Source: a virus
DNA: 28,745 nucleotides
UHGV virus genome: UHGV-0139114
Direction: 5' to 3' (one strand)
Numbering within the stretch: the first letter of the stretch is position 1; each line of letters opens with the position of its first letter. Under the pieces are notes generated by a model that was given only the letters and a program-made list of their open reading frames with translations, was not told where the DNA came from and ran no database searches. Positions 1 through 28,745 of the stretch are shown here, one piece after another. The translations under genes and the position numbers were made by a program.

Positions 1-981
1 TTATAACGTCACTCCGCCTTTTAGTGGATTCAGAGCGACGGCATTTTGCAGATAGTCAGGCGCAAGGTGCGCATAGGCCATCGTCTGCTGAATGCTCGCA
101 TGTCCCAGAATCTGTTGCAGTGCGATTATATTGCCCCCATTCATCATGAAATGGCTTGCGAATGTATGCCGCAGGATGTGGGTTGCCTGATTGGGTGGTA
201 TATCAGGTTTCACTCTGCGTAAAATCCCGCAAAATTTCTCATAATCAACTTTGAATAATTTGGCGCTGGCCTCCTCTTTAACTTTTTTCTCCAGTTCCTC
301 AGAAATCGGCACGGTTCGCTTTTTACCGTTTTTGGTTTTCAGGAAGGTAACCCTGCAATTTGTAATCTGTGCTGGTTTTAGCGTGGCAACTTCCGTCCAT
401 CTTCCTCCAGTGCTCAGACATAAAAGCGCGACAAGTAAGTCATCACCAGCCAAAACATTTAACAGTTTTTCGATTTCTGCTTTTTCCAGGAACGTCATTT
501 CAGGGTTGGCCTCCGCCAGTGGCGGCAGTCCGTGAATTGGGTGTTGCCCGGAAAATTCATCCAATTGAATTAATTTTGTGAACATGCCGGATAATCGGTA
601 CATGTCACGGTTTATCGTTGCGGCACTGATACCATCACGTAGTCGCATGGAACGATAATCCATCAAAGCCCTTTTGCTCATCCTGCTCACTGGTATATCA
701 CCTATGCCGCTGATGGTTTTGAGTAGATGATTAAACTCTTTTGTTCCATGCTCGTGGTTTTGCCCGTGATATTTCCACCAGATGTCCAGCAACTCACTCA
801 AAGTCCGGCGGTCTGCTCGCTGGCCTCCCCATTCTTTCTGACTGGCATTGGCGATCGTGTATCGCTCAAATGCTAGTGCTTCAGCTTTTCTTTCGAATTT
901 CCTGCGGATGCGTTTTCCGTCGCGACCGCGAGGTCTAATGTCCACTTCATAGCGACCATCATCGAGCTTCTTAATTGCCAT
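1..981 (-). CDS. int: Tyrosine integrase, P2 Int-like. Start placed at the ATG at 981 (GGAGGG 7 nt upstream); the track's ATG at 1011 has no SD and is the alternative.
   Basis: Translation begins MAIKKLDDGRYEVDIRP, which I recall as the P2 Int N-terminus; C-terminal region HTFASHF...LGH...Y is typical of tyrosine recombinases. Stop codon is at positions 1-3, so the attachment junction lies outside the window. Confidence 0.85.
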   Translation of the reverse strand: MAIKKLDDGRYEVDIRPRGRDGKRIRRKFERKAEALAFERYTIANASQKEWGGQRADRRTLSELLDIWWKYHGQNHEHGTKEFNHLLKTISGIGDIPVSRMSKRALMDYRSMRLRDGISAATINRDMYRLSGMFTKLIQLDEFSGQHPIHGLPPLAEANPEMTFLEKAEIEKLLNVLAGDDLLVALLCLSTGGRWTEVATLKPAQITNCRVTFLKTKNGKKRTVPISEELEKKVKEEASAKLFKVDYEKFCGILRRVKPDIPPNQATHILRHTFASHFMMNGGNIIALQQILGHASIQQTMAYAHLAPDYLQNAVALNPLKGGVTL

Positions 982-1050
982 AAGAAAGCCCTCCGGCGCT
1001 GTATTCACCATCTTGGTAGCAAATGGTGAAAATGTAATCTTTATATAGAG

Positions 1051-1344
1051 TTAGCCAATCCTTTTCGCGGAGTGGTTGGACTCTGTTGACTCTGGCCCAA
1101 TGTGCGCGAGAGCCGGTGCGATTTGTCCTGCGTCCGGCGCGGTTTTATCTGTCATAAGCCATAGAGCATATTTTTGGAATGTGGGATGCATAGTGATTTT
1201 TAGCAAAGCTGTGCCACCGGGTTCAAAGTTTCCTCCTTCATATTTTTTAAGTGTGCTTAGCGGTAACTCTATGATTTCACAGAATTTTGATTGGCTTAGC
1301 CCTTCAGCCTCACGCAAGGCCTTAATCTTTTCGCTTAATTTCAT
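1051..1344 (-). CDS. C: Immunity repressor, P2 C-like (97 aa)
   Basis: N-terminal HTH-like segment and the segment QIAPALAHIG match my recollection of P2 repressor C; divergent from cox and upstream of int as in P2. Confidence 0.8.
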   Translation of the reverse strand: MKLSEKIKALREAEGLSQSKFCEIIELPLSTLKKYEGGNFEPGGTALLKITMHPTFQKYALWLMTDKTAPDAGQIAPALAHIGPESTESNHSAKRIG

Positions 1345-1465
1345 TTGACATGGTGCCTATATAGGGACTAAATTCCCTCAAAACTGGAACCTATATAGGT
1401 TCCATTGATTTGAGAATAAACCAGCGTCTAAACGGTTTTGAGTGGTTTAGAAAGGGCTGGATCCT
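1345..1465. promoter_or_regulatory. Immunity switch region between C and cox, with TTGACA (1345-1350) and two copies of the palindrome CCTATATAGG (1356-1365 and 1390-1399; the second extends to an 18-bp perfect palindrome GGAACCTATATAGGTTCC, 1386-1403)
   Basis: Seen directly in the sequence. Position corresponds to the Pe/Pc promoter-operator region of P2-like phages; each palindrome has a TATATA core that could serve as a -10 on either strand. Confidence 0.5.
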
Positions 1466-1753
1466 ATGAGGGTACCATATATGGACTCTGAAAATTATGT
1501 GATTCAGTATCCGCTTGATGCGGTTCATGTGGATAAATTTGCTGATTTATTAGGGAAGCCAAAGACAGCCGTCAGTGAAATGGTGAAGGCAAATAAATTA
1601 CCAATTATTGAATTGCGTGATCCTTGCAAACCGAAGGCTCGTGCCGGTGAAAAATGGGTTTTCATTCCTGAGTTTAATCGCGCTGTACGTGAGGCGTTTT
1701 ATAACCGACCGGTTGAACAGCGTGATGCATGGCTTTTGTGGATGGGGTTGTGA
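1466..1753 (+). CDS. cox: Cox-like excisionase / early transcriptional regulator (alternative start at ATG 1481)
   Basis: About 90-95 aa, first rightward gene after the repressor; C-terminal WLLWMGL resembles P2 Cox. Both candidate starts have an SD. Confidence 0.75.
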   Translation: MRVPYMDSENYVIQYPLDAVHVDKFADLLGKPKTAVSEMVKANKLPIIELRDPCKPKARAGEKWVFIPEFNRAVREAFYNRPVEQRDAWLLWMGL

Positions 1754-19562: not shown

Positions 19563-22298
19563 ATGAGCACGAAATTTAAAACCGTTATCACTACTGCCGG
19601 AGCCGCAAAGCTGGCAGCCGCCACTGTCCCCGGCGGGAAAAAAGTAACCCTGTCTGCAATGGCCGTGGGTGACGGTAATGGCAAATTGCCGGTGCCGGAT
19701 GCCGGTCAGACGAAACTGGTGCATGAGGTCTGGCGTCACGCTCTGAATAAAGTCAGCGTGGATAACAAGAATAAAAACTATATCGTGGCTGAACTGGTTG
19801 TACCGCCCGAAGTGGGCGGCTTCTGGATGCGTGAGCTTGGTCTGTATGACGATGCCGGAACACTGATTGCGGTCGCCAACATGGCAGAAAGCTATAAGCC
19901 TGAACTCGCTGAAGGCTCCGGGCGTGCGCAGACCTGCCGCATGGTTATTATTGTCAGTAACGTGGCGTCCGTTGAGCTGAGTATTGATGCCAGCACAGTG
20001 ATGGCGACGCAGGATTACGTCGATGACAAAATCGCAGAACATGAGCAGTCCCGCCGCCATCCTGACGCCACGCTGACAGAAAAAGGTTTTACCCAGTTAA
20101 GCAGCGCAACAAACAGCACCAGTGAAAAACTGGCGGCAACGCCAAAAGCGGTCAAGGCTGCGAATGACAACGCAAATTCACGTCTGGCGAAAAATAAGAA
20201 CGGTGCAGATATCCAGGATAAATCAGCTTTTCTGGACAATGTTGGCGTTACCAGCCTGACGTTTATGAAAAACAACGGCGAAATGCCGGTTGATGCTGAT
20301 CTGAATACATTTGGTCCAGTTAAGGCTTATCTGGGGATCTGGTCTAAAGCTACCTCAACTAACGCAACACTGGAGAAAAATTTCCCGGAAGATAATGCTG
20401 TCGGTGTGCTTGAGGTTTTTGCTGCCGGCAATTTTGCAGGCACGCAACGCTTTATCACGAGAGACGGCAATGTATACATGCGTAAACTCGCCAATAAGTG
20501 GAATGGTACTGATGGTCCATGGGGCGTATGGCGTCACACTCAATCAGCTACCCGCCCTTTGAGTACGACTATAGACCTGAATACGCTTGGAGCCGCCGAA
20601 CATCTTGGTTTATGGCGTAACAGTAGCTCGGCTATAGCTTCATATGAACGCAATTATCCAGAGGAAGGCGGCTTTGCTCAGGGGACGCTTGAGATCCTCG
20701 AAGGCGGGAATTATGGAAGAACGCAACGTTATACCACTCGCCGTGGAAATATGTATGTCCGCTGCCTTGCGGCAAGCTGGGATGCATCAAATCCGCAGTG
20801 GGAACCGTGGTTAAGAGTCGGTCATCAGTCAGAGAGTCGTTATTACGACGGGGATTTGAATGATGTGACTTCACCAGGTATTTACAGCGTTACAGGTAAA
20901 GCGACCAACGGTCCAGTACTGGACGGAAACGGCGTGACAGTCCTCGGTATTCTGGAAGTGTTGAGGCGCTTTGATGGTGTTAACGTATGGCAGCGTTATA
21001 CAACTGCCGGAACAGGTGCAACCCTTAAAGGTCGCACGTTTGAGCGCGTCTATACCGGCAGCTCGTGGAGCGAATGGCGGGAAGTCTACACCTCGTATTC
21101 ACTTCCCCTGAATCTGGGTATCGGCGGTGCAGTGGCAAAGCTCACCAGCCTGGACTGGCAGACCCACGACTTTGTGCCGGGCAGTCTGATAACCGTTCGG
21201 CTTGATAACATGACCAACATTCCCGACGGTATGGACTGGGGCGTCATTGATGGCAACCTGATAAACATCGCAGTTGGTCCGAGTGATGATTCCGGTACGG
21301 GGCGCTCAATGCATGTATGGCGCAGCACTGTAAGTAAAGCGAACTACCGCTTTTTTATGGTGCGTATTTCAGGAAATCCGGGAAGCCGCACGATTACAGC
21401 AAGACGAGTACCAATCATTGACGAAGCCCAGACATGGGGCGCGAAACAGACATTCAGTGCTGGCCTTTCTGGTGAACTGTCCGGCAATGCGGCGACAGCA
21501 ACAAAGCTGAAAACAGCCCGTAAAATTAATAACGTTTCGTTTGATGGAACATCAGATATTAACCTGACGCCGAAAAATATTGGTGCATTTGCTTCAGGAA
21601 AAACAGGAAACACCGTTGCGAATGATAAAGCCGTTGGATGGAACTGGAGTAGCGGAGCCTATAACGCAACTATTGGTGGGGCATCAACGTTAATTCTTCA
21701 TTTTAATATCGGTGAAGGAAGTTGTCCCGCCGCCCAGTTTCGCGTTAATTATAAGAACGGTGGTATTTTTTATCGTTCTGCTCGTGACGGTTACGGATTC
21801 GAGGCTGACTGGTCTGAGTTTTATACCACAACGCGAAAACCTACAGCGGGAGATGTCGGTGCACTGCCGTTATCTGGTGGTCAATTGAATGGTGCTCTGG
21901 GTATAGGAACATCCAGTGCTCTTGGCGGTAATTCGATTGTTTTGGGTGATAATGACACGGGCTTTAAACAAAATGGTGATGGTAATCTGGATGTTTATGC
22001 TAATAGCGTCCATGTTATGCGCTTTGTCTCCGGAAGCGTTCAAAGTAATAAAACCATAAATATTACGGGGCGTGTTAATCCCTCGGATTACGGTAACTTT
22101 GATTCCCGCTATGTGAGAGATGTCAGACTTGGCACACGTGTTGTTCAGACCATGCAAAAAGGCGTGATGTATGAAAAATCAGGTCATGTAATCACGGGGC
22201 TTGGTATTGTCGGTGAAGTCGATGGTGATGACCCGGCAGTATTCAGACCTGTTCAAAAATACATTAACGGAACATGGTATAACGTATCGCAGGTGTAA
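19563..22298 (+). CDS. H: Tail fibre protein H-like, extended (911 aa) with a mosaic C-terminal receptor-binding region
   Basis: N-terminus MSTKFKTVITTAGAAKLAAATVPGGKKVTLS matches P2 H as I recall it; longer than the ~670 aa I recall for P2 H; three internal tandem repeats. Confidence 0.85.
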   Translation: MSTKFKTVITTAGAAKLAAATVPGGKKVTLSAMAVGDGNGKLPVPDAGQTKLVHEVWRHALNKVSVDNKNKNYIVAELVVPPEVGGFWMRELGLYDDAGTLIAVANMAESYKPELAEGSGRAQTCRMVIIVSNVASVELSIDASTVMATQDYVDDKIAEHEQSRRHPDATLTEKGFTQLSSATNSTSEKLAATPKAVKAANDNANSRLAKNKNGADIQDKSAFLDNVGVTSLTFMKNNGEMPVDADLNTFGPVKAYLGIWSKATSTNATLEKNFPEDNAVGVLEVFAAGNFAGTQRFITRDGNVYMRKLANKWNGTDGPWGVWRHTQSATRPLSTTIDLNTLGAAEHLGLWRNSSSAIASYERNYPEEGGFAQGTLEILEGGNYGRTQRYTTRRGNMYVRCLAASWDASNPQWEPWLRVGHQSESRYYDGDLNDVTSPGIYSVTGKATNGPVLDGNGVTVLGILEVLRRFDGVNVWQRYTTAGTGATLKGRTFERVYTGSSWSEWREVYTSYSLPLNLGIGGAVAKLTSLDWQTHDFVPGSLITVRLDNMTNIPDGMDWGVIDGNLINIAVGPSDDSGTGRSMHVWRSTVSKANYRFFMVRISGNPGSRTITARRVPIIDEAQTWGAKQTFSAGLSGELSGNAATATKLKTARKINNVSFDGTSDINLTPKNIGAFASGKTGNTVANDKAVGWNWSSGAYNATIGGASTLILHFNIGEGSCPAAQFRVNYKNGGIFYRSARDGYGFEADWSEFYTTTRKPTAGDVGALPLSGGQLNGALGIGTSSALGGNSIVLGDNDTGFKQNGDGNLDVYANSVHVMRFVSGSVQSNKTINITGRVNPSDYGNFDSRYVRDVRLGTRVVQTMQKGVMYEKSGHVITGLGIVGEVDGDDPAVFRPVQKYINGTWYNVSQV
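20290..21095 (+). repeat. Three tandem, diverged protein-level repeats of about 90 aa inside the tail fibre gene
   Basis: Repeated pattern LNT.G ... G.LE. ... GN. ... TQR(F/Y).TR.GN.Y.R ... W... W..W in three consecutive blocks. Confidence 0.6.
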
Positions 22299-27198: not shown

Positions 27199-28745
27199 GT
27201 AACAATGTAAAATTACAGGTATTGCTCAGGGCTGTTGACCAGGCATCCCGCCCGTTTAAATCCATCCGTACAGCGAGCAAGTCGCTGTCGGGGGATATCC
27301 GGGAAACACAAAAATCACTGCGCGAGCTGAACGGTCATGCATCCCGTATTGAGGGATTTCGCAAGACCAGTGCACAGCTCGCCGTGACTGGTCAGGAACT
27401 GAAAAAAGCCAGACAGGAAGCCGCAGCACTGGCTGTCCAGTTTAAAAATACTGAACGACCGACAAATGCACAGGCAAAGGCAATGGAAGCCGCGCGTAAA
27501 AATGCGTCTGAGTTACAGGCGAAATATAACAGCCTGAGATTGTCGGTACAGCGACAGCGTCAGGAGTTGAGTCAGGCGGGTATTAATACCCGTAATCTGG
27601 CGCATGATGAACGAGGGCTGAAAAACCGTATCAGTGAAACCACCGCACAGCTTAACCGTCAGCGTGACGCGCTGGCGCGTGTCAGTGCGCAACAGGCAAA
27701 ACTTAACGCAGTAAAACAGCGTTATCAGGCAGGCAAGGAACTGGCCGGAAATATGGCCTCGGTGGGCGCTGCCGGTGTGGGGATTGCGGCGGCGGGAACG
27801 ATGGCCGGAGTTAAGTTGCTGATGCCCGGTTATGAGTTTGCGCAGAAAAACTCAGAATTACAGGCCGTGCTCGGAGTGGCAAAAGACTCTGCCGAAATGA
27901 CCGCACTCCGCAAACAGGCGCGCCAGCTCGGTGACAATACCGCCGCCTCGGCGGATGATGCGGCCGGTGCGCAGATTATTATTGCGAAAGCCGGTGGGGA
28001 TGTTGATGCCATTCAGGCGGCAACGCCGGTCACGCTGAATATGGCGCTGGCGAATCGCCGCACGATGGAAGAAAACGCCGCCCTGCTGATGGGGATGAAA
28101 TCCGCCTTTCAGCTTTCAAACGATAAGGTCGCTCATATCGGGGATGTTCTCTCCATGACGATGAACAAAACCGCCGCCGATTTTGACGGTATGAGCGATG
28201 CGCTGACCTATGCCGCACCAGTGGCAAAAAATGCCGGTGTCAGCATTGAAGAAACCGCCGCAATGGTCGGGGCGCTGCATGACGCAAAAATTACTGGTTC
28301 AATGGCGGGGACGGGAAGCCGTGCCGTGTTAAGCCGCCTGCAGGCACCGACGGGAAAAGCATGGGATGCACTGAAAGAGCTTGGTGTGAAAACCTCAGAC
28401 AGCAAGGGAAACACCCGACCAGTATTTACCATTCTGAAAGAAATGCAGGCCAGTTTTGAGAAAAACCGGCTCGGTACTGCCCAGCAGGCTGAATACATGA
28501 AAACCATTTTCGGGGAGGAGGCCAGCTCAGCCGCCGCCGTGCTGATGACTGCCGCCTCAACCGGAAAGCTGGACAAACTGACCGCTGCGTTTAAAGCCTC
28601 AGACGGGAAGACTGCAGAGCTGGTAAATATCATGCAGGACAACCTCGGCGGTGACTTTAAGGAGTTTCAGTCCGCTTATGAGGCGGTGGGGACTGACCTG
28701 TTTGACCAGCAGGAAGGCGCACTGCGTAAGCTCACGCAGACGGCC
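27195..28745 (+). CDS. T: Tail tape measure protein T, 3'-truncated by the window end
   Basis: Frame open from ATG 27195 to the window end (which is why it is absent from the ORF track); begins MSNNVKLQVLLRAVDQASRPF and is Ala/Gln-rich and coiled-coil-like. Confidence 0.85.
   Translation, partial: MSNNVKLQVLLRAVDQASRPFKSIRTASKSLSGDIRETQKSLRELNGHASRIEGFRKTSAQLAVTGQELKKARQEAAALAVQFKNTERPTNAQAKAMEAARKNASELQAKYNSLRLSVQRQRQELSQAGINTRNLAHDERGLKNRISETTAQLNRQRDALARVSAQQAKLNAVKQRYQAGKELAGNMASVGAAGVGIAAAGTMAGVKLLMPGYEFAQKNSELQAVLGVAKDSAEMTALRKQARQLGDNTAASADDAAGAQIIIAKAGGDVDAIQAATPVTLNMALANRRTMEENAALLMGMKSAFQLSNDKVAHIGDVLSMTMNKTAADFDGMSDALTYAAPVAKNAGVSIEETAAMVGALHDAKITGSMAGTGSRAVLSRLQAPTGKAWDALKELGVKTSDSKGNTRPVFTILKEMQASFEKNRLGTAQQAEYMKTIFGEEASSAAAVLMTAASTGKLDKLTAAFKASDGKTAELVNIMQDNLGGDFKEFQSAYEAVGTDLFDQQEGALRKLTQTA

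Follow-up and report, generated by a model that had tools for sequence, protein, structure and literature searches.

Introduction

In P2, P2 Hy dis and WPhi, the P2-type immunity repressor C represses the early promoter Pe by way of a pair of repeated half-sites, and as of 2007 these three were the only phages in which such operators had been located (PMC1904268). The half-sites vary in length and spacing, from 8 bp at a spacing of 22 bp in P2, through 8 bp at 26 bp in P2 Hy dis, to 10 bp at 34 bp in WPhi (PMC1904268). Repression is abolished only when both half-sites are mutated in WPhi and P2 Hy dis, and in P2 the double mutation reduces it substantially (PMC1904268). P2 C recognises direct repeats, as the original prediction for the locus studied here had stated and as the literature documents (PMC1904268, PMC2995052), and the WPhi half-sites, TATTGGTGAC, were established by mutagenesis (PMC1904263).

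In its crystal structure, P2 C is a symmetric dimer akin to repressors that act on palindromic sites; its recognition helices are separated by 26 Å, the same distance as in P22 c2, and in the published model the sequence is read by only one helix per dimer (PMC2995052). Massad et al. cite C.Esp1396I as a structural relative of P2 C, and this protein occupies directly repeated palindromes that are bound cooperatively by two dimers (PMC2995052). Phage 186, which is related to P2, combines face-to-face promoters with inverted-repeat CI operators at pR (PMC1904268). In 434 and P22 c2, symmetric sites of 14-20 bp with an AT-rich centre are bound by a symmetric dimer, and the P2 C structure superimposes on that of P22 c2.

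Karlsson et al. (2006, J Bacteriol 188:3823) reportedly defined immunity classes I-VII together with putative repeats. The literature we searched, which did not extend to that study, makes no mention of palindromic operators for P2-type C. Here, we describe a pair of palindromic elements between C and cox in a P2-like prophage which, by position and homology, is a symmetric variant of the known P2-type O1/O2 operator pair, departing from the family only in that its sites are not non-palindromic.

Results

The window, by which we mean the whole stretch of 28,745 nucleotides that was analysed, starts with an integrase gene (1-1011, minus strand), followed by the C gene, a Cox-family gene on the plus strand and then replication genes resembling P2 B and A. 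The immunity repressor gene C (ORF at 1051-1344, minus strand) encodes a helix-turn-helix protein of 97 aa with a Pfam HTH_3 match, and cox (1481-1753, plus strand; Pfam Phage_Cox, E=1e-23) comes first in the Pe-controlled early operon, in agreement with the original prediction, which had placed the palindromes in a C-cox switch region governed by a 97-aa repressor. The locus shares with P2 the same protein family, a face-to-face Pe/Pc switch with Cox, and two sites flanking the -10.

Protein comparison gives the window C 100% identity with L-413C gpC, 56% with WPhi C and 43% with P2 C. It has a single helix-turn-helix domain and a structure match to P2 C (2XCJ and 2L49, E=2e-21). The C-cox region, Pe included, is 98.8-99.9% identical to those of the Yersinia phages L-413C and HQ103, of R18C, of the Salmonella phage FSL SP-004 and of several "P2" isolates, and it is present, at one copy per genome, in 420 of 5426 complete E. 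coli genomes (~8%). Judged by its sequence, the window is a P2-like (Peduovirus) prophage of the L-413C immunity type, a known and common type that is heteroimmune to P2. The expectation that its immunity specificity would differ from that of P2 is borne out by the 43% identity of the repressors and by operators unlike P2 GTTTAGAT, and unlike WPhi TATTGGTGAC as well; what had been overlooked is that the type is already represented by L-413C, HQ103 and R18C.

A consensus scan places the -35 of Pe, TTGACA, at 1345-1350 (plus strand), where the original prediction had it, adjoining the C start codon (CAT, 1342-1344), and the -10, TAAATT, at 1369-1374 (plus strand); the former aligns with the annotated WPhi Pe -35 and the latter with WPhi TATATT. 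With a spacer of 18 bp, this promoter matches the consensus at 10 of 12 positions and is the sole sigma-70-like promoter in a scan of 1000-1800. Transcription from Pe is predicted to start near 1380 (plus strand), six nucleotides past the -10, by homology with the end of the WPhi promoter feature (position 1793 in the WPhi class, L001), which would put the second palindrome at about +6 to +25. No Pc candidate rose above the threshold of the promoter scan, and the mapped WPhi Pc -35 falls within a 19-bp segment that is missing from the window.

On the cox side, the ATG at 1481 (ATGGAC) is the start used by RefSeq and most phage records, has GAGGG ahead of it at 1468-1472 and lines up with the start of WPhi cox, and a start at 1466 appears in the mechanical ORF list and in some phage records. 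We consider that cox probably starts at 1481 and that the 1466 start is probably wrong; with the 1481 start, the intergenic region is 1345-1480. The T at 1487 is private to the window, G standing there in every fetched relative, so that codon 3 of Cox, counted from the 1481 start, reads Ser and not Ala. The cox-proximal part of the interval also contains two inverted repeats, CCAGC...GCTGG (1421-1425 and 1457-1461) and TCTAAAC...GTTTAGA (1427-1433 and 1445-1451). This 1421-1461 module is near-identical across many classes with different C, and so presumably belongs to the Pc/Cox side of the switch.

Two copies of the 10-bp perfect palindrome CCTATATAGG lie at 1356-1365 and 1390-1399, 34 bp apart from centre to centre, the spacing first reported. 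With the promoter spanning 1345-1374, copy 1 takes up its whole spacer, and copy 2 follows shortly after the predicted start. At no more than one mismatch, CCTATATAGG has two matches in the 28.7-kb window against 0.15 expected, and none of 100 shuffles gave two or more; a search of the window at two mismatches showed no gain over chance. It is also the sole 10-bp palindrome with two occurrences in the window. The perfect palindrome around copy 2, originally given as 18 bp, in fact extends over 20 bp (1385-1404, TGGAACCTATATAGGTTCCA) and is the longest in the window, where palindromes of at least 20 bp are expected 0.04 times per shuffle; it constitutes the candidate operator O2, with its core at 1390-1399. 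Copy 1 is the centre of an imperfect symmetric site of 16-20 bp, with 7 of 8 symmetric pairs in GTGCCTATATAGGGAC and 8 of 10 in the 20-mer at 1351-1370 (TGGTGCCTATATAGGGACTA), the candidate operator O1, as against 10 of 10 in O2. The two 20-mers match each other at 15 of 20 positions, in direct and inverted orientation alike.

Two other long perfect palindromes in the window are CGGGTATTAATACCCG (16 bp, 27577-27592) and GTCCAGTACTGGAC (14 bp, 20911-20924). A third 10-bp perfect palindrome, CCATATATGG (1475-1484), lies over the cox start codon and has its ACC and GG arms 6 bp apart, like O1 and O2, around a different centre. We considered it as a weak O3 for autoregulation and rejected this role, the element being absent from relatives that share the recognition helix and its centre misfitting YAWWTR; it may be a weak third site or a product of chance.

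The two cores align onto O1 and O2 of WPhi (immunity class III) with an offset of 2 bp and at the identical spacing of 34 bp, flanking the Pe -10, and the window sites are in this sense positional homologues of the WPhi operators. In both phages, a homologous C gene abuts TTGACA, and of two 10-bp repeats at a distance of 34 bp, one occupies the -35/-10 spacer and the other follows just past the start. A palindrome present twice is at the same time a direct repeat, which makes the arrangement exactly the WPhi one, a point missed in the original prediction; the comparison with P2 and other P2-like operators that it had proposed yields cores that align with WPhi O1 and O2 in position and differ in sequence. 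The layout of a P2-type operator pair comprises an 8-10-bp sequence in two copies, separated by 22-34 bp and placed around the -10 or the -35 of Pe, beside a gene for a P2 C homologue of about 100 aa. With a P2 C homologue next door and two 10-mers at 34 bp flanking TAAATT, the locus has this layout, except that the sites are not non-palindromic and directly oriented, the core and O2 being perfect palindromes. The WPhi repeat is asymmetric and direct, whereas the window sites are symmetric over up to 20 bp and have no defined orientation. The GTTTAGAT sites of P2 likewise differ from them in being 8-bp non-palindromic direct repeats placed 22 bp, or two helical turns, apart, and the one-helix reading published for P2 contrasts with the symmetry of the window sites.

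A two-fold symmetry over about 14-20 bp, conserved among relatives, is what characterises symmetric operators, and it is found here. In this respect the window resembles 434 and P22 c2, with their symmetric sites, AT-rich centre and symmetric dimer, and C.Esp1396I, with its directly repeated palindromes, although the centre-to-centre distance is 15 bp in the latter and 34 bp here. Unlike that of the classical helix-turn-helix operators, the repressor is a one-domain P2-type protein of 97 aa, and there is no evidence for a lambda-type array of three operators. Phage 186, for its part, has a two-domain CI of about 190 aa, in contrast to the single-domain C of the window, which is therefore not of the 186 type; since the window holds no extra motif copies beyond chance, there is also no evidence for distal sites of the 186 kind.

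C homologues and their upstream regions were collected from IMG/VR and GTDB genomes and grouped into about 19 classes. Across these, the operator sequence changes together with the recognition helix. The classes with helix PLSTLKKYE (the window, L039/40 and L070) and L073 (SVSTLKKYE) have operators in common, and classes of the PLSTLKKYE type share their operator down to 61% overall protein identity, at spacings of 29, 32 or 34 bp, with a consensus, TGGAACC(T/C)ATATAGGTTCCA, that is exactly the window O2. Classes with RSTLxKYE-type helices carry the palindromes (C)TCCTAWWTAGGA(G), the SINTLKKYE classes of the window clade carry GTACATATGTAC, and one more distant class has two copies of a 16-bp near-palindrome, GGTCTCAATTGATACC.

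Throughout the window clade, the sites carry no indication of orientation. In 10 of 10 classes, comparing O1 with O2 gives as good a match inverted as direct, their departures from symmetry are not common to the two sites, and the arm sequences vary yet stay symmetric across the 10 related classes. In the L039 class, reverse-complementing the O1 core CCCATATAGG gives the O2 core CCTATATGGG. O1 is the less symmetric of the two because its outer arms must encode the end of the spacer and the -10 hexamer. The P2-clade classes, by contrast, keep asymmetric direct repeats, and in the WPhi clade asymmetric repeats are direct in WPhi (L001) and L054 and inverted in L046/L086 (the class of phage P37) and L049, so that repeat orientation is not fixed in the family. 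The original prediction had suggested that palindromic operators might point to a different binding mode for C, and the absence of orientation information in O1 and O2 makes a symmetric mode plausible rather than demonstrated.

The palindromes are intact in 36 of 37 viral contigs of the same class, and the 54 bp spanning O1 and O2 are identical in 326 of 420 E. coli prophages, as against 253 of 420 for the adjacent 54 bp. In the three variant prophages that were fetched, the changes fall at 1373-1375 (the end of the -10 and the discriminator) and at 1426, and none is in the palindromes. Operator changes are absent from three other isolated phages of the class, vB_YpM_50, FSL SP-004 and P2_AC1.

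A different pattern is seen in phages isolated as lytic or clear-plaque forms, which carry palindrome substitutions or a C deletion, whereas the window represents the intact prophage version. R18C, described as a virulent/lytic P2-like phage (PMC6823313), has an intact C identical to that of the window, and its private changes in 721 bp, counted against the class consensus, come to just two, 1364 G>T (O1) and 1390 C>T (O2). By our arithmetic, random placement would put one change in each of the 10-bp cores with a probability of about 4e-4. An identical C is found too in L-413C, a mutant of L-413 that forms clear plaques (PMC3448106) and carries 1356 C>A in O1, 1373 T>C in the -10, 1402 C>A in the outer arm of O2, and one cox change. 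Three of the four operator substitutions in these two phages hit the CC/GG dinucleotides, and the first C of CC was changed independently in O1 of L-413C and in O2 of R18C. From their placement, these substitutions look like operator-virulent mutations, and the double-site pattern parallels the genetics of P2, WPhi and P2 Hy dis. The original papers on R18C and L-413C do not discuss them. HQ103 has an identical Pe and identical palindromes together with a 7-bp deletion in its own C, and a full-length 294-bp homologous repressor supplied in trans blocks its plaque formation (PMC10321612).

Around O2, symmetry extends beyond the perfect palindrome into an imperfect stretch at 1372-1417, whose 24-nt arms (1372-1395 and 1394-1417) are 75% complementary, with CTCAAAAC and ATTTGAG as outer arms. 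The predicted fold of this stretch reaches -11.3 kcal/mol on the plus strand (z=-3.7) and -18.4 kcal/mol on the minus strand (z=-4.3); as RNA, it might fold into a stem-loop close to the 5' end of the Pe transcript as well as in the C mRNA leader. A symmetric stretch of 24-34 bp centred on O2 and starting right past the -10 exceeds shuffles in 13-15 of 19 C classes, among them L001, L039, L041, L043, L046, L055, L057, L063 and L070; in the WPhi-like classes, the asymmetric O2 sits in the "loop" between arms such as TCAAAAGG and CCTTTTGA. The one Rfam 15 hit, to mir-2686, is attributable to chance, scoring 18 bits where the family's gathering score is 90 (E=0.7). The scan flagged 1385-1404 together with TTGATTTGAG as terminator-like; an intrinsic terminator would have a GC-rich stem with a T-run directly after it, and here the tail is interrupted and the stem core AT-rich. 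We rejected a terminator as the main role of O2, given the poor T-tract and the relatives that have no T-run past their stems.

Discussion

With position, conservation, the substitutions of the lytic isolates, symmetry and co-variation with the repressor taken together, the most probable reading is that the two CCTATATAGG elements form the centres of O1 and O2, the operators by which C shuts off Pe. O1 (about 1351-1370) would take up the entire -35/-10 spacer and O2 (1385-1404) would span about +6 to +25, such that occupation of both sites would shut out RNA polymerase and leave cox and the replication genes unexpressed, thereby maintaining lysogeny and immunity to phages of the same class. 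Symmetric sites together with the symmetric dimer of P2 C lead to the simplest reading, namely that a single symmetric C dimer most likely binds each site of about 20 bp (consensus TGGAACCTATATAGGTTCCA). Its two recognition helices would contact the DNA equivalently, likely at the TGG and ACC arms on either side of a TATATA centre able to bend. The two dimers, at a distance of 34 bp, would cooperate and bend the DNA, as described for WPhi C. The analysis shows the features of the sequence, their homology of position with WPhi O1 and O2, their conservation, the matching of operator to recognition helix and the pattern of substitutions in the lytic isolates; the binding of C itself, its stoichiometry, the symmetric contacts and the transcription start are what we infer here. 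Three features fit less easily. Isolated phages of the class such as vB_YpM_50, FSL SP-004 and P2_AC1 have unaltered operators. At a spacing of 34 bp, the sites lie roughly a quarter turn out of phase, which counts against the operator reading, and the symmetry of O2 reaches past the contact range of one dimer, so that part of it may serve another purpose.

Among other binders, Cox, the lytic repressor and excisionase, had been named in the original prediction as a possible ligand of the palindromes, and their location in the C-cox switch region and the filaments of P2 Cox, which at high concentration reach toward Pe (PMC3936717), are consistent with this. P2 Cox, however, binds at least six asymmetric cox-boxes (TTAAAG/CNCA), spaced by 10-11 bp over Pc and protecting at least 70 bp (PMC3936717). 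Compared with that consensus and with an array of at least six copies over about 70 bp, the palindromes are only two, lie 34 bp apart on Pe and do not resemble the cox-box motif. Moreover, classes with nearly the same cox-proximal module differ in their palindromes, which vary with C rather than with Cox. Motif, copy number and position thus speak against Cox as the binder to an extent that leaves the idea scarcely credible. It is also improbable, if less starkly so, that the TATATA cores serve mainly for silencing by host H-NS or as promoter architecture in the form of -10-like elements. In HQ103, which has the window's Pe region unchanged, H-NS binds fragments of both Pe and Pc and silences Pe at 21 °C (PMC10321612), and TATATA is similar to a -10 hexamer; yet H-NS does not need identical GC-clamped palindromes at a fixed spacing of 34 bp, conservation and mutation affect the CC/GG and TGG/CCA arms as well as the AT core, the promoter scan finds no acceptable -35 partner for either TATATA on either strand, and the operator sequence follows the recognition helix of the phage repressor. 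The AT-rich cores may nonetheless contribute to the silencing of Pe by H-NS.

Two further alternatives leave C in place or overlap with it. The operators could be read as in P2 and WPhi, with one helix per dimer on an asymmetric repeat of 8-10 bp and the palindromy incidental, a result of the AT-rich TATATA core plus chance. This draws on the asymmetric direct repeats of the three experimentally studied members (PMC1904268, PMC2995052) and on the asymmetric repeats retained by relatives in the WPhi and P2 clades. We regard it as unlikely, given that the symmetry spans 16-20 bp and recurs in about 10 independent classes with differing but symmetric arms, that the asymmetries of O1 and O2 are unshared and the L039 cores are reverse complements of each other, and that the substitutions of the lytic isolates fall in the left arm (1356, 1390) as well as in the right arm (1364, 1402). 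Somewhat less doubtful, though we would still not expect it to hold, is the proposal that the palindromes, chiefly the extended O2 stretch, are selected as nucleic-acid structure, with repressor binding secondary or additional; the candidates are a 5' stem-loop of the Pe transcript that would stabilise the mRNA or cause pausing, a leader stem-loop of the convergent mRNA from Pc to C, and a cruciform. The stretch that exceeds shuffles in 13-15 of 19 classes, the WPhi-like ones included, speaks for such a structure, as do the hairpins predicted on both strands (z=-3.7 and z=-4.3), the left arm in WPhi, which begins at about +1 of Pe (constructs in PMC1904263), and the marking of O2 plus TTGATTTG as terminator-like. 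Against it, G-U-type wobble pairs number 8 on the plus strand and 11 on the minus strand over the 19 classes, and plain mismatches are more frequent (32); without a strand bias in wobble pairs, RNA structure is not separable from DNA symmetry. O1, furthermore, is palindromic yet lacks an extended stem and lies upstream of the Pe start, the T-run past the stem is poor for a terminator, and the substitutions that the lytic isolates carry in both O1 and O2 are left unaccounted for by structure alone. The extended symmetry of O2 is thus possibly a second function that overlaps the operator, and does not replace the reading of O1 and O2 as binding sites for C.

Beyond the window, a broader interpretation can be put forward tentatively, as one that may well prove wrong in some part. 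A large clade of P2-type C would bind symmetric operators of 16-20 bp, the direct-repeat mode of P2 would be a half-degenerate derivative of a palindromic ancestor, and the symmetric stretch around O2 would be a separate conserved element of the switch, such as a 5'-terminal stem-loop. Sister clades would, under this joint interpretation, use the same fold on asymmetric repeats, whether direct or inverted.

The element is real, functional-looking and very common, and belongs to an ordinary lysogeny switch. Symmetric sites are the normal mode for helix-turn-helix dimers, and here they depart from the description of P2-type operators as non-palindromic direct repeats. The relevance of this lies mainly in work on P2-family repressors and in the lytic behaviour of L-413C and R18C. 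For L-413C, which is used in plague diagnostics, and for R18C, double operator mutations are a suggested cause of lytic behaviour in phages whose repressor gene is intact. P2 C has long been an oddity of the textbooks, a symmetric dimer said to bind direct repeats that are not palindromic, for which there is no DNA-bound structure, and the combination of an identical repressor fold with a perfect 20-bp palindromic site makes the class of the window a tractable partner for co-crystallisation. Taken across the family, the palindromic, inverted and direct arrangements form a natural series for the evolution of operator architecture and immunity specificity.
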